From a virus, in the UHGV virus genome UHGV-0334393: a stretch of 10,956 bases of DNA. The stretch is one strand, 5' to 3'. A program made the translations under genes and the position numbers. The notes below the pieces were generated by a model that had not been told where the DNA came from, searched no databases, and was given only the letters and a program-made list of their open reading frames with translations. Shown here piece by piece: positions 2,987-10,956 of this stretch. The stretch's first letter is position 1; each line of letters starts with the position of its first letter.

Positions 2987-3076
2987 TTTGAGTTTTGTCA
3001 TTCAAATTAAGCAACGCCCCGCAGTGCTCGCAACACATGCAGGGCGTCTAACCAACAACGTAAACTAGGAGCCGTT

Positions 3077-3274
3077 ATGGTTGCCGTAAATCATATACCA
3101 CACCTTGTACACACACAAACGGCCTTTGTGTGGCGTTTTCTGGCCCTGAGTGCCGGAGAATCTCAAATCATCCACGTAACCGCCTGGACGGAACGCGAAG
3201 CGCGTAGCCGTTGCCCGTCCGGTTGTGTTGCTGTATTCGCCGCCCGTATTCGTCAGGGGGTGAGTCATGCATAA
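3077..3274 (+). CDS. Hypothetical protein (65 aa), first gene of the operon that ends in the primase
   Basis: AGGAG Shine-Dalgarno 5 nt upstream of the ATG; overlaps the next ORF by 8 nt (ATGCATAA). No recognisable homology. Confidence 0.55.
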   Translation: MVAVNHIPHLVHTQTAFVWRFLALSAGESQIIHVTAWTEREARSRCPSGCVAVFAARIRQGVSHA

Positions 3275-3499: not shown

Positions 3500-3799
3500 A
3501 TGAAACTTAAATATTCTGGCTTAACTGCCAGTGGCAACACTCACCCTAAATTTACGCGCGGTGATATTTACCGCGACCAGTACGGCGGCACGGTAATGAT
3601 TAAGGGCGTGGCGGGACGGTGCGTAACTTACCGCCGTGAAGGTTACGAATATGATTGCGTGATGCCTGTTTATCAGTTCCGGCGTGATTTTTCTCTGGTA
3701 CAGACCGCGCCGCATAACGTGCCCACCAGCAACGCCAGAGCACGGGCAAACATCCAGAAGCTGAAAACAATGATTAACGGATTCAGGGGTAAAAAATGA
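3500..3799 (+). CDS. Hypothetical protein (99 aa)
   Basis: GGAGA Shine-Dalgarno 9 nt upstream; its stop overlaps the primase start (ATGA). No recognisable homology. Confidence 0.6.
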   Translation: MKLKYSGLTASGNTHPKFTRGDIYRDQYGGTVMIKGVAGRCVTYRREGYEYDCVMPVYQFRRDFSLVQTAPHNVPTSNARARANIQKLKTMINGFRGKK

Positions 3800-5928
3800 A
3801 ACTGGCACCGAACGTAAAACAGCAGTCACGCGGCATAAAACACAAAGAAACAGAAGTCATTATTTTTGCGGGTAGTGATGCCTGGTCACACGCAAAACAA
3901 TGGCAGGAACATGACGCGCGTATGGCCGGAGATAATGAGCCTCCTGTGTGGCTTGGGGAGCAGCAGTTATCCGAACTGGATAAGCTGCAAATTGTGCCGG
4001 AAGGCAGAAAATCAGTACGCATATTCAGGGCCGGACATCTTGAGCCAGTAATGATCAAGGCGATTGGTCAGAAACTGGCGGCGGCAGGCGTACAGGATGC
4101 AAATTTTTACCCTGAGGGAATGCACGTTCAGAAGGTGGAGAACTGGCGCGAATATCTGGCCCGTGAGCGGCAGAATCTTTCTGATGGTCTGGTTATTGAG
4201 CTTCCGGTAAAGAAAAAAGATACCGGAAGTCATAGCGATGACGAATTAAAGCCACGCGTTGAAAGTCGCGCCGATGGTGTTTTCTGGGTAACGCCCAAAG
4301 TGGATAAGCAGTCAGGCGAAATTATCCGGCCTGAGACGTGGTTATGTTCTCCGCTTGAACTACTGGGAACGGGGACGATCGGTAAAGAGCATTACCGCGT
4401 GATGCGCTGGAAAAAAACCGCAAACCATGAAGTCATCACAATGGCGATCCCGTGTGGTGGTATCGGCGACCGTGACGGCTGGCGGTTACTTAAAGATCAC
4501 GGGCTGAACGTGACAACCAACGGCAAATACAGGGCAATCCTGGCGGACTGGATGCAGTTAAGCGGAAGCCATGAGGAATGGCAGTTAAGCACAACAACGG
4601 GCTGGCATTTTGGCGCGTACATCATGCCGGACGGTTCGATCATTGGTGATTCTGAAAAACCGATCCTGTTTACCGGAAAAAGCGCCGCGATTAACGGTTA
4701 TTCCGTGGCGGGTACGGCGGAGGGCTGGCGCGAGAGTGTGGCGCGGCTGGCTGGCGGTAATGCCTCAATGATGCTGGGTGTGGCAACGTCACTGGCAGCG
4801 CCTTTAATTGGCCTTGTGGGTGCTGACGGCTTCGGGGTGCATCTTTTCGAACAGTCATCGGCAGGTAAGACCACCACGCAGAACATCGCATCAAGTTTAT
4901 GGGGAGAGCCGGACGCGCAGCGGCTGACCTGGTACGGCACGGCGTTAGGTATTGCCAATGAGGCCGAGGCCCATAATGACGGGCTTTTACCACTGGATGA
5001 GATAGGCCAGGCCGGAAATGCGCGGGAAGTGTCAACGTCTGCTTATACGCTGTTTAACGGTTCAGGGAAATTGCAGGGGGCGAAGGATGGCGGCAACAGG
5101 GAGATCAAACACTGGCGAACGGTGGCAATCAGCACCGGAGAAATGGACGTTGAGACATTCCTCAAAAGTGAGGGGATAAAAGTTAAGGCGGGGCAGCTTG
5201 TCCGACTGCTTAACGTTCCGATGGAAAAAGCCACGAAATTTCACGAATACAGCAACGGTAAGGAACATGCTGACGCGTTAAAGGATGCCTGGACAGCAAA
5301 TCACGGGGCGGCGGGTCGTGAGTGGGTTAAATGGCTGGCAGGCCACCAGCAGGAGGCAAAGGACACGGTAAGGGAATGCCGCGAACGGTGGCGCAACCTG
5401 ATACCGGAGAGTTACGGCGAGCAGGTCCACCGCGTGGGTGAACGTTTCGCCATACTGGAGGCCGCGCTTGTGCTTTCCGGTCATGTAACTGGCTGGGTCG
5501 TGCAGGAATGCCGCGACGCGATACAGCATAACTTTAATGCCTGGGTGAAGGAGTTCGGCACGGGTAACAGGGAATTTAAACAGATGGTTGAACAGGCTGA
5601 GGCGTTTTTGTCGTCGTTTGGGTTTAGCCGCTACCTTCCGTACCCCAATACAGATGAGCGTGATTTACCGATTAAAGAGCTTGCCGGATACAGAAAAGGG
5701 AGCATTCGCAACGAAGATGACGAGATGCGCTATTACACGTTCCCGCACGTGTTTGAGAGTGAGATAGCGAAGGGATTTAATCCGGCGCATTTTGCGCGTG
5801 CCCTGGATGCTGCCGGAATGCTGGAGAAGGGAAGCGATCGCCGATACAAAAAAAAGGCGCTGGGCAAGATTGGGGGTAAGCAGCATGTTTTTTACGTGCT
5901 GATGTTCCAGCCTGATGATGAAGATTAA
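3796..5928 (+). CDS. Replication initiator, primase/helicase type (DUF927/D5-like; SF3-like ATPase domain)
   Basis: 710 aa. Walker A SSAGKTT and Walker B LLPLDEIG motifs in the central region. N-terminal region is consistent with a toprim/primase-like domain. An iteron origin lies immediately downstream, as in PICI pri-rep modules. Confidence 0.9.
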   Translation: MKLAPNVKQQSRGIKHKETEVIIFAGSDAWSHAKQWQEHDARMAGDNEPPVWLGEQQLSELDKLQIVPEGRKSVRIFRAGHLEPVMIKAIGQKLAAAGVQDANFYPEGMHVQKVENWREYLARERQNLSDGLVIELPVKKKDTGSHSDDELKPRVESRADGVFWVTPKVDKQSGEIIRPETWLCSPLELLGTGTIGKEHYRVMRWKKTANHEVITMAIPCGGIGDRDGWRLLKDHGLNVTTNGKYRAILADWMQLSGSHEEWQLSTTTGWHFGAYIMPDGSIIGDSEKPILFTGKSAAINGYSVAGTAEGWRESVARLAGGNASMMLGVATSLAAPLIGLVGADGFGVHLFEQSSAGKTTTQNIASSLWGEPDAQRLTWYGTALGIANEAEAHNDGLLPLDEIGQAGNAREVSTSAYTLFNGSGKLQGAKDGGNREIKHWRTVAISTGEMDVETFLKSEGIKVKAGQLVRLLNVPMEKATKFHEYSNGKEHADALKDAWTANHGAAGREWVKWLAGHQQEAKDTVRECRERWRNLIPESYGEQVHRVGERFAILEAALVLSGHVTGWVVQECRDAIQHNFNAWVKEFGTGNREFKQMVEQAEAFLSSFGFSRYLPYPNTDERDLPIKELAGYRKGSIRNEDDEMRYYTFPHVFESEIAKGFNPAHFARALDAAGMLEKGSDRRYKKKALGKIGGKQHVFYVLMFQPDDED

Positions 5929-5950
5929 TCCCCTGTGTGAGGAAAAAAAT

Positions 5951-6290
5951 TGCGGGTTATGCGGGTTATCCTGTGTATAAGTGTATTAAGTGCATGAATA
6001 TAAAGGAAACCAATAACCCGCACGTAACCCGCAAAAGGGCATTTATAACCCGCAAAAGCACGATTATAACCCGCAGGCGAATAACTGAAGTAACACCGGA
6101 CAGTCATGCGTAACCCGCAGAAAAAAAACCGTTTGCGGGTTATTTTGAGCGTTTTGCGGGTTACGTGGTGAGCAAATAATAAACAGGGTGTTTTGCAAAA
6201 TACTGATATAAAAGGATAAAAAATGGTTAGCACGCTAAGATAACCCAATAACCCGCATAACCCGCACATGTTTCTATATATATATAAATT
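5951..6290. repeat. Replication origin: iterons TAACCCGCA / TGCGGGTTA in both orientations (copies at 5951..5968, 6013..6075, 6111..6119, 6134..6164, 6241..6266) followed by a (TA)n unwinding-element-like tract (6275..6290)
   Basis: At least twelve copies of the 9-mer or close variants counted directly, with irregular spacing and an AT-rich tract. Located just downstream of the replication protein. Confidence 0.75.
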
Positions 6291-6300
6291 GAGGTGGCAA

Positions 6301-6552
6301 ATGACCAGAACACGCAGAGACAGAACAGAGCCAAAATATAAAGCGTTAGACATGACTGAGCACACCTTAAAGGTGGCAATCAGAACGATAGACCGCCACA
6401 CGCGGGAAGGATACGCGAAGGAACATCCCGACCTGATAAGCGCATTCATGACCACAGCGGCGGCAAACTTTGCCACGCTGACAGAACGGGAGATTGCCGA
6501 AGCGGAACAGGTAACAACCATCAACGTTAAAACCGGAGAGGTGGAATCATGA
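6301..6552 (+). CDS. Hypothetical protein (83 aa), translationally coupled to ssb
   Basis: GAGGTGG Shine-Dalgarno 5 nt upstream of the ATG at 6301. The tracked ORF start at 6268 lies inside the iterons and has no Shine-Dalgarno. Its stop overlaps the ssb start (ATGA). Confidence 0.6.
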   Translation: MTRTRRDRTEPKYKALDMTEHTLKVAIRTIDRHTREGYAKEHPDLISAFMTTAAANFATLTEREIAEAEQVTTINVKTGEVES

Positions 6553-6959
6553 CAGCACAGATAGCCGCTTACGGGCGGCTGGTGGACGACCCGCAGGTAA
6601 AACAGACCAGCAAGGGCACACCGATGACGCTGGCGCGTATGGCGGTCCCCCTTCCGTGCAGCCAGGCAGATGACGGAACGGCTACGTTATGGCTGTCCGT
6701 CATCGCATTTGGCAAGCAGGCCGACTTCCTGGCTAAACATCAAAAAGGCGACGTTGCCAGCGTATCTGGCGTGATGCAGATAAGCCAGTGGACCGGACAG
6801 AACGGGGAAACGCGGCAGGGTTATCAGGTTATTGCAGACAGCGTAATCAGTGCCCGTGCGGCACGTCCTGGCGGGAACAGACGCAAAACCACAGGCGCAC
6901 AGGGTAATCAGCCACCAGCGGGAGACGATGACCCCTACGGTGATGATATTCCGTTCTGA
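6549..6959 (+). CDS. ssb: Single-stranded DNA-binding protein (short SSB with OB fold and acidic C-terminal tip)
   Basis: 136 aa. Collinear similarity to E. coli SSB (GRLVDDPQVKQT..., W..VIAFGKQADFLAKHQKGD..., ...W.DQ.G..R) and the hallmark C-terminal DDIPF tail after a Gly/Pro/Gln-rich linker. Confidence 0.85.
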   Translation: MTAQIAAYGRLVDDPQVKQTSKGTPMTLARMAVPLPCSQADDGTATLWLSVIAFGKQADFLAKHQKGDVASVSGVMQISQWTGQNGETRQGYQVIADSVISARAARPGGNRRKTTGAQGNQPPAGDDDPYGDDIPF

Positions 6960-7112: not shown

Positions 7113-7161
7113 TTGCGCAAAATGCAATCATGATTATAATCATGACTGGATGAACATCCAG
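7113..7161 (+). promoter_or_regulatory. Promoter P1 for the capsid operon: -35 TTGCGC (7113..7118), 16-bp spacer, -10 TATAAT (7135..7140) inside a perfect 18-bp palindrome TCATGATTATAATCATGA (7128..7145), followed by the inverted repeat CTGGATG-AA-CATCCAG (7146..7161)
   Basis: Hexamers and palindromes read directly; positioned about 55 bp upstream of the first capsid-operon start codon. The palindrome over the -10 suggests operator control. Confidence 0.55.
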
Positions 7162-7196: not shown

Positions 7197-7403
7197 ATGG
7201 CAGAAGAGAAAAAAGGTGGTGTTTCGGTGTACATAAGCCCCGAAATCGTGGAGGTGCTCAAGCAGCGCCACAAAAAAAACTATGAGGCTGGCGTAGCGGC
7301 TGGACTGGATCCGCTGATGACGCCGGAGCCGTCGATAGGTTCACTTGTGCGCTCTTATTTACTTGCGGCGCTTGGGATGCATAAAAATTATGGGGGTGAA
7401 TAA
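7197..7403 (+). CDS. Hypothetical protein (68 aa), first gene of the capsid operon
   Basis: AGAGGA Shine-Dalgarno; stop overlaps the downstream start (TAATG). No recognisable homology. Confidence 0.6.
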   Translation: MAEEKKGGVSVYISPEIVEVLKQRHKKNYEAGVAAGLDPLMTPEPSIGSLVRSYLLAALGMHKNYGGE

Positions 7404-8458
7404 TGACAGGCAAAGCAACGGCACTTAACACTAACCAGCTTTTCATGTACCTGAATCGCGGGGATATTGCGGATTTTAAATTCAGCCCTCTGTTTACCAC
7501 GCTGTTTTTCCCGAACGTGGCGACATTCAGCACGCAAAACATCATGCTGGATACCCTGGACATTGAAGAAGTCACCATGTCGGCGTTTTGTTCGCCTATG
7601 GTTGGCAGCCAGGTACAGCGCGATAAAGGGTACGAAACCAGCACAATTAAACCTGGCTACATGAAGCCAAAGCACGAAATCGATCCAACGAAAACCATCA
7701 TGCGCATGGCTGGAGAAGATCCGGCACAGCTTAACGACCCTACCTACCGACGTATGCGCCTTATTACTGGCAACATGCGCCGCCAGATAAACGCCATTAA
7801 AGCGCGCGTGGAATGGCTGGCGGTGAATGCGATAACGACCGGAAAAAACATCATTGAGGGCGAAGGCATAGAACGCTATGAAATCGACTGGAAAATACCG
7901 GAAAACTGCATCATAGAGCAGGCCAAGGGTAAAAAATGGTCCGAGCATGATAAAGATATTTACGATCCAATCTATGACATCGAACTATACGCAGATCAGG
8001 CAGGTTGCCCCGCCAACGTCATGATTATGGGCGCTGAGGTATGGCGCACGTTACGCAGCTTTAAAAAATTCCGCGAACTGTACGATCTTTCCCGTGGTTC
8101 AGAATCCGCCGCAGAACTGGCCTGTAAAAACCTGGGTGAAGTAGTGAGCTTTAAAGGCTATCTGGGCGATATTGCCCTTATCGTCTATTCCGGCAAATAC
8201 ACTGACAGCGACGGTACCGAAAAATATTTCCTTGAGCCTGATTTGCTGGTCCTGGGTAACACCAACAACAAAGGGCTGGTGGCCTATGGTGCGATTATGG
8301 ATCAGGAAGCTGTAAGAACAGGCGCAACGCAAAACATGTACTACCCGAAAAACTGGATTGAGGACGGCGATCCGGCGATTGAGTACGTGCAGACGCACAG
8401 CGCACCGCAGCCGGTACCGGCAGACATTCGCAAATTTGTTACCGTCAAAATTGGTTAA
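7403..8458 (+). CDS. Major capsid protein, lambda gpE family
   Basis: 351 aa, collinear with lambda gpE (341 aa) from memory: FKFSPLFTTLFFPN vs FKFDPLFLRLFFRE; PGYMKPKHEIDP vs PGYVKPKHEVNP; YPKNWIEDGDPAIEYVQTHSAP vs YPKNWVTTGDPAREFTMIQSAP. Good Shine-Dalgarno (GGGGGTGA). Confidence 0.9.
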   Translation: MTGKATALNTNQLFMYLNRGDIADFKFSPLFTTLFFPNVATFSTQNIMLDTLDIEEVTMSAFCSPMVGSQVQRDKGYETSTIKPGYMKPKHEIDPTKTIMRMAGEDPAQLNDPTYRRMRLITGNMRRQINAIKARVEWLAVNAITTGKNIIEGEGIERYEIDWKIPENCIIEQAKGKKWSEHDKDIYDPIYDIELYADQAGCPANVMIMGAEVWRTLRSFKKFRELYDLSRGSESAAELACKNLGEVVSFKGYLGDIALIVYSGKYTDSDGTEKYFLEPDLLVLGNTNNKGLVAYGAIMDQEAVRTGATQNMYYPKNWIEDGDPAIEYVQTHSAPQPVPADIRKFVTVKIG

Positions 8459-8469
8459 CTGGGGATTCT

Positions 8470-8805
8470 ATGAACACTCCATACATTGAGTTATTTGCAG
8501 GCAGTCAGCAGGTATCAACGACGCTGGTACATTTTGCCGCTGATGCTGGCTTTATTCAGGAATTTACCCCGCTGATGCTGTCAGACAATGGCGAGTTTAA
8601 GCCGTGGGATGGTCAGGAATCTGGCAAGGCTGTTTATCTGACTTCGTACCCCGTGGACACGTCGACGCAGAAATCAGCACAGTGTTACAAGACGGGGATA
8701 TTTAATATCGCCGCCGTAAACTGGCCTGAGAGCGCCGACACTGACGCGAAAAAATGCGCCGCCTTTGCGGGTTCTGGCGTATCCGTTCAGCCGCTGGCGC
8801 GATAA
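8470..8805 (+). CDS. Head decoration protein, lambda gpD family
   Basis: 111 aa versus lambda gpD at 110 aa. Shared motifs TPLMLSDNGEFKPWDG vs TPLMLDTSSRKLVAWDG and KKCAAFAGSGVSVQ vs KKRTAFAGTAISIV. Immediately downstream of the gpE-like gene. Confidence 0.85.
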   Translation: MNTPYIELFAGSQQVSTTLVHFAADAGFIQEFTPLMLSDNGEFKPWDGQESGKAVYLTSYPVDTSTQKSAQCYKTGIFNIAAVNWPESADTDAKKCAAFAGSGVSVQPLAR

Positions 8806-9260: not shown

Positions 9261-9330
9261 ACGGGTCCTTTCCGGCATATGGACCCGTTACGGGGCGGCG
9301 ACCTCGCGCGTTTTCGCTATTTATGAGCCT
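9261..9330 (+). other. cos site 1 (plus orientation): lambda-like cosQ (9261..9292), cosN 12-nt cohesive-end sequence GGGCGGCGACCT (9293..9304), and the start of cosB (CGCGCGTTTTCGCTATTTATGA), diverging after about 9328
   Basis: ACGGGTCCTTTCCGG...GTTACG|GGGCGGCGACCT|CGCG.GTTTTCGCTATTTATGA matches the lambda right-end/left-end junction as recalled. Downstream sequence up to the terS start differs from lambda cosB. Confidence 0.8.
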
Positions 9331-9437: not shown

Positions 9438-9980
9438 ATGAAATCGCACCTGATGAACAAAAAAAACATGGCGAAAAGCTGCCGTGTAAGTGCGACAGCG
9501 TTCGACAAGTGGGGAGTGACTCCCGTTGAACGTAAAGGCCGTGAGGCGTTTTATGATGTTGCCAGCGTGATAGACAATAGGGTTAACAATGCAATTAGCC
9601 AGCTTACAAACGACAAAGGCGATATTGATGATGATGAACTCTTACGAGTCAGGATCAGATTACTGACAGCACAGGCGGAGGCGCAGGAACTTAAAAACGA
9701 GCGCGATCGCGGTGACGTGATTGATACTGAGTTTTGCCTGTACGCGCTTTCAAAGCTGGCGAGTCAGATTTCATCAATCATGGACAGCCTCCCGCTTACT
9801 ATGCAAAGGAGCTTCCCACAGATTACCCCCGCCATGCTGGACAGGCTTAAAAGGGAAGTGGTTAAAGCCTGTAATGCCAGTGCCAGAGTTGCCGACAACC
9901 TCCCACAGATACTGGCTGATTACTTGAAAGAAACAACCGGAAACGTACCGGAAAAGTTGCTACAGAAGAAAGGCAAGTAA
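9438..9980 (+). CDS. Terminase small subunit, lambda Nu1 family (island-encoded TerS)
   Basis: 180 aa versus Nu1 at 181 aa. Strong central similarity: LLTAQAEAQELKNERDRGDVIDTEFCLYALSKLASQISSIMDSLPLTMQRSFPQI vs Nu1 LTRAQADAQELKNARDSAEVVETAFCTFVLSRIAGEIASILDGLPLSVQRRFPEL. The N-terminal HTH region is also alignable (NKK..., YD.A.VI). Lies directly downstream of cos 1, as in lambda. Confidence 0.85.
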   Translation: MKSHLMNKKNMAKSCRVSATAFDKWGVTPVERKGREAFYDVASVIDNRVNNAISQLTNDKGDIDDDELLRVRIRLLTAQAEAQELKNERDRGDVIDTEFCLYALSKLASQISSIMDSLPLTMQRSFPQITPAMLDRLKREVVKACNASARVADNLPQILADYLKETTGNVPEKLLQKKGK

Positions 9981-10006
9981 CAGAAGCGCAATTATTGAAC
10001 AAAAAT

Positions 10007-10202
10007 GAGAAAGGATCTGATAATGGCATTTTCTGGCTAAAATGCCTCGTGTCAGATCCTTTCTTTTTTTAATATTTTCATTGTTAAACAGTCTGTTACA
10101 GAGAAGAAGAACGGATCTGACTTTTGCCGGAAAATTTTCATAAACAGATAAAAACCGCGAGGTCGCCGCCCCGTAACGGGCCATAATTCCAGGAAGGACC
10201 CG
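10007..10202 (-). other. cos site 2 (minus orientation): cosQ-like (10172..10202), cosN (complement of 10160..10171), and a canonical lambdoid cosB with three R-site-like repeats (AGAAAGGATCTGA 10008..10020, TCAGATCCTTTCT 10052..10064, AGAACGGATCTGA 10108..10120) and an AT-rich IHF-like segment
   Basis: The reverse complement reads GGGCGGCGACCTCGCGGTTTTTATCTGTTTATGAAAATTTTCCGG...CCGTTCTTCTTC..., near-collinear with the recalled lambda left end through cosB. The middle repeat is inverted relative to the outer two. Confidence 0.8.
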
Positions 10203-10235: not shown

Positions 10236-10517
10236 ATGACAGAAGCCGAAATACTGGGATTAATCCGCCGCGTTGCCGGAATCAGCCAGCAGGTTGACGA
10301 ACAGGCCACGCAGCCGGACAGCGTGACCGCTGAAAATTATGCGCGTGTTGTTGCGGAGGTGATGCGCCGTGATGGTATAGAACTTAATGGCGTGGATATG
10401 CGCAACATACGAACCAGAGTTCTTGAGTTGCTGGCCTACCGTCGCCGTGTGGAGATGTATCGGGAGAAGGAGAAAATAACGTACCACTGGAAGAAGCCGG
10501 AGCGGTTGCGGCGGTAA
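10236..10517 (+). CDS. Hypothetical protein (93 aa)
   Basis: GGGGG-type Shine-Dalgarno 6 nt upstream of the ATG; plausible amino-acid composition; no recognisable homology. Confidence 0.5.
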   Translation: MTEAEILGLIRRVAGISQQVDEQATQPDSVTAENYARVVAEVMRRDGIELNGVDMRNIRTRVLELLAYRRRVEMYREKEKITYHWKKPERLRR

Positions 10518-10719
10518 CTGGTTGATATTCCCGACGGACCAAAAATGGGTGGCTACATCCCTCGCTTCTGAGGACTGTTAACAAGCTGCCTGAAAGACAG
10601 TCACAAACTACGAAATTTTCGCAGTTTAATTAATGATCAGCTTAATCGCTAACCCGCTGATATTTTCGGAAACCTCAATTTGAGGAAGTCGGCGCGGTAA
10701 CTCGCTGAACTTTAAGCAA

Positions 10720-10768
10720 AGCGCAAAATTGCGCTTGCTGAATAATCATTATGATTACGCAGATGATT
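10720..10768 (+). promoter_or_regulatory. P1-like regulatory region: inverted repeat AGCGCAA-AA-TTGCGCT (10720..10735), inverted repeat TAATCAT-T-ATGATTA (10743..10757), and a further ATGATTA (10762..10768)
   Basis: Shares the GCGCAAAAT(T)GC and ATGATTA/TAATCAT motifs with P1 at 7113..7145. Sits just upstream of a Shine-Dalgarno (AAGGA) and an ATG at 10774. Confidence 0.4.
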
Positions 10769-10810
10769 AAGGAATGACCGAAGGCGGAAATTCGCCTGTG
10801 GTTAATGGGG

Positions 10811-10923
10811 GAGTTGCAGATCTGCAACTCGACCATGAAATTACGGAAACTACCCGTAGTTTGGGTAGTAAGAGCAACACCCAGATTTTGGGGCTTACTC
10901 GTGATACCCAAATTTGGGGTATC
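10811..10923. repeat. Palindrome cluster: perfect 20-bp palindrome GAGTTGCAGATCTGCAACTC (10811..10830) followed by three related dyads of the form ACCC-N6/7-GGGT (10849..10870, 10878..10897, 10903..10923) spaced about 27 bp apart
   Basis: Symmetry checked by manual reverse-complementing. These overlap the tracked ORFs 10774..10956 (+) and 10675..10935 (-), whose coding status is therefore doubtful. Confidence 0.5.
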
Positions 10924-10956
10924 GGCGGCAACCATAACGACTTTCGTTACGGTTGA

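Follow-up and report, generated by a model that had tools for sequence, protein, structure and literature searches.

Results

A palindrome and three dyads at the right end of a phage satellite

The DNA analyzed here, a stretch of 10,956 nucleotides from the virus genome UHGV-0334393 (hereafter the window, numbered from its first letter), ends in a cluster of symmetric sequences at positions 10811–10923, namely a 20-bp palindrome (PAL) followed by three dyads (D1, D2 and D3), which together are called the module below. Because of the Pfam content of its open reading frames (ORFs), an arrangement of two cos sites and a set of origin iterons, the window is identified as an Escherichia coli phage satellite, specifically, an Rpp-type phage-inducible chromosomal island (PICI), with PAL and the dyads at its right end. 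The module is a real, previously unannotated cis element of such satellites: it is discrete, non-coding, co-oriented with the late operon and optional.

As the original prediction had it, PAL (GAGTTGCAGATCTGCAACTC, 10811–10830, with GATC at its centre) is a perfect palindrome over all 20 bp; it is the longest in the window, whose first-order Markov shuffles produced arms of at least 10 in only 4 of 300 cases. Next on the plus strand come a linker (GACCATGAAATTACGGAAAC, 10831–10850), D1 (TACCCGTAGTTTGGGTA, 10851–10867), a spacer (GTAAGAGCAA, 10868–10877), D2 (CACCCAGATTTTGGGGC, 10878–10894), a second spacer (TTACTCGTGA, 10895–10904) and D3 (TACCCAAATTTGGGGTA, 10905–10921). The three dyads, which had been described as spaced about 27 bp apart, start at 10851, 10878 and 10905, i.e. 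at intervals of exactly 27 bp, and share arms of the TACCC/GGGTA type; D3 is contained in a hairpin with 7-bp arms, GATACCC-N7-GGGTATC, at 10903–10923. The sequence AGTAAG in the D1–D2 spacer is complementary to CTTACT at 10894–10899. The dyad consensus ACCC-N7-GGGK yields 5 strand-matches (0.41 expected; none of 200 shuffles reached 5), and a search of the rest of the 10,956 bases found no other. Tandem Repeats Finder does not report the 27-bp repeat because the copies are only ~55–67% alike outside the arms. In folding, the region does far better than shuffled sequences (z = −4.8 for the plus strand and −6.7 for the minus strand).

Distribution of the module among genomes and satellites

The bounds originally given to this structure coincide almost exactly with those of a sequence conserved elsewhere. 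When positions 10556–10956 were compared by megablast with 5,426 complete E. coli genomes, many genomes matched the window at 10806–10925 only, the flanks on both sides being unrelated between contexts. The module core is present in 661 of these genomes (~12%), at 749 places (1–6 per genome) and nearly always at full length, as well as on 65 IMG/VR contigs, whereas blastn of the module against 50,697 GenBank phages gave zero matches. Among the GTDB species representatives, patterns of the 93-aa protein encoded by the neighbouring gene confirmed no locus, and the dyad pattern produced 13 matches, all in unrelated taxa, compared to ~17 expected by chance (a rough estimate for 18 specified bases). 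Because no locus was found in these representatives and the dyad matches are at chance level, the module appears to be confined to Escherichia/Shigella.

All sampled places lie inside satellites of at least three types: Rpp-type PICIs, capsid-forming PICIs (cf-PICIs) that carry an HK97-type capsid protein, portal, HNH, TerS and TerL, and a type with a ClpP–capsid (protease–capsid) fusion. The satellites concerned are integrated next to tRNA-Pro, tRNA-Ile, clpS, thiM or a cold-shock-like gene. In 74 of 76 copies, the module is located 45–785 nt (most often 45–48 nt) downstream of the stop codon of the gene for the 93-aa protein, on the same strand. In the window, this gene occupies 10236–10517 on the plus strand and belongs to phrog_1561, a family to which PHROG assigns no function; it is the constant upstream neighbour of the module and of the repetitive tail described below.

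Sharp bounds with unrelated flanks could be those of a recombination site, that is, an att arm, the site of a site-specific recombinase or a mobile palindromic element resembling a miniature inverted-repeat transposable element. Consistent with such an origin, in five loci (L004 9006–9557; L009, L017, L030 and L046), two direct copies of the module flank a 316-bp segment (in L004, the copies are 434 bp apart), and the Chi site GCTGGTGG is found directly 5′ of PAL, at a distance of 2 nt, in 37 of 75 copies (at 8996 in L003, at 8996 in L004 and in 35 others). However, the position and orientation of the module are fixed relative to one gene, unlike those of a random insertion, the module occurs at no more than six places per genome, and no target-site duplication was seen. 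The earlier suggestion of a recombination or att-proximal site does not hold for an att arm: the attR core, CTCTCGTGCC, in L001 lies ~630 bp further downstream, beyond the expected range of ~200 bp, and the module is found in satellites integrated at different chromosomal sites. Overall, we regard a recombination site as very improbable.

The right ends of these satellites are crowded with further Chi sites in both orientations. The 316-bp insert of L004 has 79% identity with the right-hand half of the window's origin region (6133–6286), a half that the primase-proximal origin of L004 itself lacks. In L030, the second module copy (~9991–10113 in the IMG/VR orientation) is cut right after D2 by an insertion resembling an IS5-family end.

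Sequence conservation within the module

Conservation was compared over 861 pairs of loci in which the neighbouring 93-aa genes are less than 88% identical. Across these pairs, the 93-aa gene has a mean identity of 83%, with 74% at third codon positions, and the module as a whole has a mean identity of 94.9%. Within the module, identity is 100% in D1, 99.3% in D2 and 99.1% in PAL, compared to 85–95% in the linker and spacers and 89% in D3. The PAL arms, D1 and D2, 50 nt in all, contain a single one of the 23 distinct substitutions; the remaining 63 nt of the module contain 22, an uneven spread for which a binomial estimate gives ~3 × 10−5. These alignments show the module to be under stronger nucleotide constraint than the adjacent gene, with the constraint centred on the dyads.

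Among 32 aligned variants, the PAL arms are invariant except for one G.U-compatible change, and the sole variable base of the PAL centre is the central C (C>T). D1 is identical in all 76 copies, the D1–D2 spacer has one polymorphic site (C/T), and D2 varies at its outermost base only. The linker is variable (93% identity) and, in copies of the L005 type, has a 9-nt indel, GAAATTACG. The least conserved parts are the D2–D3 spacer (~85% identity, polymorphic at sites 88, 89 and 91) and D3, which largely retains its arms but varies freely in its 7-nt centre (AAATAAA in most copies); in the D3 arms, a compensatory A-T>C-G change was found once, along with four A.G intermediates.

The reading frame across the module

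The 60-aa ORF that traverses the module (10774–10956, plus strand) was judged not to be a gene, in agreement with the original prediction, which regarded the ORFs in this region as suspect. A conserved gene extending from 10774 with a synonymous-site pattern was looked for and not found: neither the start nor the stop is conserved, and a synonymous pattern is lacking. Only 16 of 66 copies retain the ATG, the frame meets a TGA in the first bases of PAL in most copies, and the sole Shine-Dalgarno-like motif, AGGA, is 1 nt away from the start codon. The last three letters of the window (10954–10956) are the TGA of this ORF; the end is not conserved because this codon is TGG in some relatives, in which the frame continues (...RYGWCFYPIGGKVLR). 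Across 33 unique variants, the ratios of synonymous to non-synonymous changes among the 23 distinct substitutions are 8:15, 8:14 and 3:19 in the three frames, with no excess of synonymous changes in any of them, and the ORF has no match in Pfam or PHROG. On the other side stand 22 database relatives of the 60-aa ORF, near-identical in the core with ragged N and C ends, a weak peptide similarity to a KilA-N protein (see below) and the calls of the Prokaryotic Genome Annotation Pipeline (PGAP), which leaves the site unannotated in most genomes but predicts a 52–60-aa hypothetical protein in some. These annotated hypothetical proteins are very probably spurious, and it is extremely unlikely that the ORF encodes a real small protein.

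In L001 (12399–12510), an ATG overlapping the TGA (TGATG) opens a 30-aa hydrophobic ORF, 3′ of which a second GCAGATCTGGATCATCATTACGG segment resembles the palindrome–linker region.

Similarity to a KilA-N gene of lambdoid prophages

The dyads can be read as T-x-x-L/W-G peptide repeats, a point that had not been made in the original prediction. ACC and GGT, as well as CAA and TTG, are mutual reverse complements, so that T-Q-x-L-G spelled with these triplets gives palindromic DNA. Paired dyads, when sought in IMG/VR, turned up on ~31 lambdoid prophage contigs, inside a gene that encodes a KilA-N domain (Pfam E = 6 × 10−21), which is a DNA-binding domain, and is located in the nin region, with rusA and Q on either side (e.g. 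L101 5240–6082; Escherichia phage PhiR63_1). This gene holds GATACCCAAAATTTGGGTGTCGG ... ATGAAACTACCCAAAATTTGGGTAGTAA, coding for DTQNLGV ... ETTQNLGSK; the copy in L101 contains two perfect 15-nt palindromes, ACCCAAAATTTGGGT, coding for TQNLG. With flanks included, D3 agrees with the first of these segments in 20 of 23 nt and D1 with the second in 24 of 28 nt (28 of 32 in copies without the 9-nt insert), and BLASTP of the window ORF aligns ETTRSLGSK with ETTQNLGSK (E = 0.002). Judging from these matches, the module probably descends from, or shares a site with, a KilA-N coding segment. The dyad symmetry itself may have a coding origin, given the mutually reverse-complementary codons and the match to the KilA-N gene.

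These matches, together with the facts that the satellite frame is open across the module in most copies and that the module is optional, would also fit the remnant of a KilA-N-type gene, in decay or domesticated, that came into the satellite tail as a hitch-hiker, lacks a function of its own and is conserved through recent spread by recombination. We consider this explanation unlikely. Conservation is strongly uneven and tracks the dyads rather than codons, no start codon is kept, and across divergent satellite types the conservation of the module exceeds that of the third codon positions of the adjacent gene. Furthermore, the similarity consists of two short segments that occur in swapped order in the satellite, tblastn detected no further KilA-N homology in the examined satellite loci, and PAL has no counterpart in the phage gene. 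Although near-identical dyads with matching flanks are shared, the phage KilA-N gene is intact (280 aa) and its dyads vary synonymously, whereas the satellite has no conserved ORF, the reverse order of segments, three dyad copies and the added PAL.

A parallel to Roi of phage HK022, which reportedly binds a site within its own gene beside a site for integration host factor (IHF), was dropped: HK022 Roi is unrelated to the KilA-N protein, and there are no such dyads at 27–37 kb of HK022.

A tail of tandem units combining an IHF consensus with a palindrome

Starting at its stop codon, the 93-aa gene is followed by an array of units of ~48 bp each (10515–10736 in the window); such arrays are also found in L084 (2780–3210), L090 (3655–3860) and L085 (3260–3700). 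In each unit, TAA-N4-YTGATW is separated by 8–12 nt from a short downstream palindrome whose centre is rich in A/T and whose G/C arms vary, as in AAGCGCAAAATTGCGCTT, CCTCAATTTGAGG, GTGCAAAAATGCAC, CCCCCATTGGGGG and TTCGCCAGCGGCGAA. Read on the other strand, TAA-N4-YTGATW is the IHF core consensus, WATCARNNNNTTR. In 63 distinct tails, 36.4 kb in all, this consensus has 120 matches on the minus strand and a single one on the plus strand, with ~1.1 expected for each strand. A perfect stem of at least 5 bp is present in 77% of 66 distinct units, compared to 11% in shuffled sequences, and the stems have many different sequences.

In the window, the IHF consensus of the first unit, TATCAACCAGTTA, lies on the minus strand at 10515–10527, where it overlaps the stop codon of the 93-aa gene, and is followed by the palindrome ACCAAAAATGGGT at 10538–10550. 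The second unit (10650–10697, plus strand) combines the consensus TATCAGCGGGTTA (10650–10662, minus strand) with the palindrome at 10673–10685 (CCTCAATTTGAGG), and the third (10698–10736, plus strand) combines a degenerate IHF motif, TAACTCGCTGAAC, with the palindrome at 10719–10736 (AAGCGCAAAATTGCGCTT). The 93-aa protein has a C-terminal WKKPERLRR, which is retained by a homologue of no more than 46% identity. The first IHF consensus overlaps the DNA coding for this peptide, and a look-alike of that DNA, GGCGCGGTAAC, precedes each later tail unit. The same unit architecture is found beside the gene for this homologue, on a contig that carries the small RNA (sRNA) STnc290.

The module looks like a derivative of one tail unit: the 3′ part of the unit motif (CTGATATTTTCGGAAAC) recurs in similar form in the linker (CATGAAATTACGGAAAC), as does the end of a unit (GTCGGCGCGGTAAC) after D3 (TCGGCGGCAAC), and the hairpin is present three times. 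In the PICI packaging literature available to us, there is no description of the tail or of the module region, and a search of that literature for the sequences themselves likewise gave nothing; the tail of IHF consensus motifs and palindromes is apparently undescribed for PICIs.

Other symmetric sequences lie close to the module. The palindrome AGGCGGAAATTCGCCT is located upstream of it in the window (10782–10797, plus strand), and in other satellites a near-identical palindrome, GGCGGAATTCCGCC, is found 3′ of the module instead. A terminal hairpin, CAACCATAACGA/TCGTTACGGTTG (10929–10955, plus strand), belongs to the window-type right flank, which is common to L001, L006 and L007. The inverted repeat CTGAATAATCATTATGATTACGCAG at 10738–10762 is present in the window-type flank only and resembles the Fur box consensus, GATAATGATAATCATTATC.

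Other genes and sites of the satellite

Pfam searches of the window ORFs identified an integrase (482–1720), a DUF927 primase-helicase (3796–5928), a single-stranded DNA-binding protein (SSB, 6549–6959), a capsid protein of the lambda E type (7403–8458), a decoration protein of the gpD type (8470–8805) and a Nu1-like (Rpp-like) protein (9438–9980). The lambda cosN sequence, GGGCGGCGACCT, is found as an exact match in the window at 9293–9304 (plus strand) and 10160–10171 (minus strand) only. These two opposed cosN sequences flank the Nu1/Rpp-like gene, which is the cos1/cos2 layout of the E. coli satellite EcCICFT073, from which the two-cos arrangement is known (PMC6092414; PMC6739421); the flank of the site at 10160–10171 looks lambda-like in its cosB. 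The module shares with the PICI cos sites of EcCICFT073 described in the same papers a cis-acting, non-coding character and a location in the late region. Unlike them, however, it has no cosN, and EcCICFT073 itself lacks the module; with the exact cosN confined to the two positions given above, identification of the module as a cos site was ruled out.

Just 3′ of the primase gene, 11 exact copies of the iteron TAACCCGC are present in both orientations at 5952–6265, around A/T-rich stretches, and this cluster (5950–6290) is the probable origin of the satellite. The module contains no such iterons, and origin function was accordingly rejected for it. An 18-bp perfect palindrome, TCATGATTATAATCATGA, at 7128–7145 lies ~50 bp 5′ of 7197, where the capsid operon has its first ORF, and may be a late-operon operator.

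The family of the 93-aa protein is narrow (36 representatives at 50% identity); its gene was found in 1,377 of the 5,426 complete E. coli genomes, about a quarter, and the protein is 80–98% identical among module-bearing satellite contexts. An AlphaFold2 model has three helices at low confidence (pLDDT only 65.6), Foldseek with this model returned zero matches at E ≤ 0.001, and no DNA-binding family or fold was matched in Pfam, in PHROG or with the low-confidence model.

Discussion

We tentatively interpret the module as a non-coding, cis-acting extragenic palindromic element specific to E. coli phage satellites that forms a 3′-end boundary comparable to a reiterative IHF-binding bacterial interspersed mosaic element (BIME-1/RIB), a reading that we hold to be possible rather than probable. 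It is suggested by the extragenic 3′ position, the tail of IHF consensus motifs and palindromes and the stable folding. The module sits in untranslated DNA behind the final gene of the late (capsid/packaging) operon, its 20-bp palindrome preceding one hairpin unit repeated three times at 27-bp spacing. As DNA beside IHF-bent sites, it could support a nucleoprotein or topological boundary through symmetric sites or through hairpins able to extrude; as RNA produced by read-through of the late operon, it could form four stable hairpins that define and protect the transcript end. Hairpins at the end of the late transcript might then insulate the flanking genes, so that a role as boundary or insulator may be envisaged. 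The invariance of D1 and D2, centres included, would in addition imply a sequence-specific partner.

In BIME-1/RIB, also called RIP, repetitive extragenic palindromic (REP) sequences flank an IHF site at the 3′ ends of transcription units (Boccard & Prentki 1993, as cited in PMC3333891). The linkers of BIME-1 carry the IHF sites, and REPs act as terminators, mRNA stabilizers and topological insulators (PMC3333891). Similarly, the satellite module is extragenic and directly follows the last gene of an operon, the satellite tail pairs short palindromes with an IHF consensus in a conserved linker, and its units are tandem, with copy numbers that differ between loci. The differences are substantial as well: the satellite elements occur only in phage satellites, at 1–6 places per genome rather than hundreds; the satellite IHF consensus sites are all in one orientation, each with a single highly variable palindrome; and the module of PAL and three dyads contains no IHF site and is far more conserved than ordinary tail units. 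The REP (palindromic unit) consensus is absent, the sequence being unlike it on inspection. Pfam searches of 10 window ORFs found no gene for a REP-associated tyrosine (Y1) transposase (RAYT).

Several results weigh against a boundary function. The IHF consensus is absent inside the module (10811–10923). An intrinsic terminator was ruled out because, on both strands, PAL and the three dyads lack a following U-run, and no site resembling a promoter or terminator was called in the module; the only terminator call touching it, in L003, is weak, with a 5-pair stem at D2. Covariation within the module provides no help: 23 of the 30 pairs never vary, so that the pair count is uninformative, a single compensatory change was found, and 93 of 500 shuffles do as well. 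There is no strand bias of wobble pairs (10 G.T vs. 6 A.C mismatches, p = 0.45). PAL is self-complementary through its centre, and the centres of D1 and D2 are invariant too, which a hairpin alone does not need. Finally, the module is missing from EcCICFT073 and from the cf-PICI of the O157:H7 strain 86-24 (L084), both of which have the unit array, and from about half of the satellites with the 93-aa gene (1,377 vs. 661 genomes), so that a general boundary role cannot be an essential one. Induction, packaging and transfer are known for both EcCICFT073 and the cf-PICI type of O157:H7 (PMC6092414; bioRxiv 10.1101/2022.09.08.507074); because satellite types without the module complete these steps, the module is accessory and dispensable for the basic satellite cycle.

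The self-complementarity of PAL through its centre and the invariant centres of D1 and D2 point instead to sequence-specific recognition of duplex DNA. The main alternative is an array in duplex DNA to which a single sequence-specific dimer, encoded by the satellite, a helper phage or the host, would bind; TACCC-N7-GGGTA, present three times at 27 bp, and the separate 20-bp palindromic site, with flanking IHF bends, would then act like an operator, an iteron or centromere-like cluster, or a decoy titrating a helper protein. Such an array would account for the exact spacing of the repeated half-site and for the A/T-rich centres and 0–2-nt spacers of the palindromes, which are typical of dimer sites. 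The oriented IHF consensus sites nearby are a feature at the DNA level, in five loci two module copies flank a 316-bp fragment homologous to the origin, and the near-identical dyads in the lambdoid KilA-N gene offer a candidate binder. However, those phage dyads vary synonymously, as expected of coding sequence, the motif is found nowhere else in the island, and blastn yields no match in the 50,697 GenBank phages. In the window, no gene for a cognate binder, no controlled promoter and no origin adjoins the dyads, and the neighbouring 93-aa protein gave only the low-confidence three-helix model, to which no fold was matched. Moreover, the neighbouring tail units carry many different palindromes, and therefore, one protein cannot bind them all. 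Taken together, we consider the array somewhat unlikely; neither the wobble test nor the search for a binder separates it from the boundary reading.

A more specific proposal is that the module is such an array carried as cargo, a 'protein sponge' for a helper-phage protein, with the KilA-N protein of the nin region as the candidate because its own gene carries near-identical dyads. If so, IHF bends would assemble a complex by which the satellite senses, titrates or exploits the helper protein, although we deem this particular version improbable.

Known lambdoid arrays provide a further comparison. Like the operators OR and OL and the replication origin ori-lambda, the module has 3–4 similar dyads of ~17–19 bp within less than 100 bp, with G/C arms and an A/T centre. 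The iterons of ori-lambda lie inside gene O and can be read as peptide repeats, and the window dyads are likewise readable as peptide repeats in an ORF. Unlike these arrays, however, the module has no adjacent repressor or initiator gene and no promoter; the origin of the satellite lies elsewhere and has the different iterons TAACCCGC; and the dyad spacing is 27 bp compared to 20–24 bp in the lambdoid arrays.

The lack of an upstream promoter-like site and of an intrinsic terminator also bears on the possibility that the module is a trans-acting sRNA carried as cargo, or the 3′ part of one, with four hairpins in ~115 nt, that regulates host or helper transcripts. The module is discrete, optional and cargo-like and lies at the satellite end, where accessory genes are located; it folds very stably, and the loops of D1 and D2 are conserved. 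Conversely, Rfam gave no match at E ≤ 1 in L001 11000–13200 or at E ≤ 0.1 in the window, L084, L085 and L089. A tRNA-like element was rejected separately, as ARAGORN found none. The sole notable complementarity, a perfect 14-nt match of 10926–10939, immediately 3′ of the module, to 3073–3086 around the start codon (3077) of a 65-aa ORF, was rejected as an antisense target; it is probably due to chance because it is absent from L031, L036 and L038 (13–14 kb), the three longest same-flank loci, which were checked for it. An sRNA is, in our view, distinctly improbable.

E. coli PICIs and cf-PICIs have been studied almost wholly through their genes and cos sites, and the present observations indicate that their right ends also hold structured non-coding DNA: in the loci examined, the 93-aa gene is followed by an oriented array of IHF consensus motifs and palindromes. 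If the tail binds IHF, or if the module binds a specific factor, this would add a cis-acting layer to satellite biology, which might consist in control of transcript ends, DNA topology or titration of helper proteins, and would provide a simple marker for annotating satellite ends. The module is an entry point to an undescribed RIB-like tail of E. coli phage satellites.

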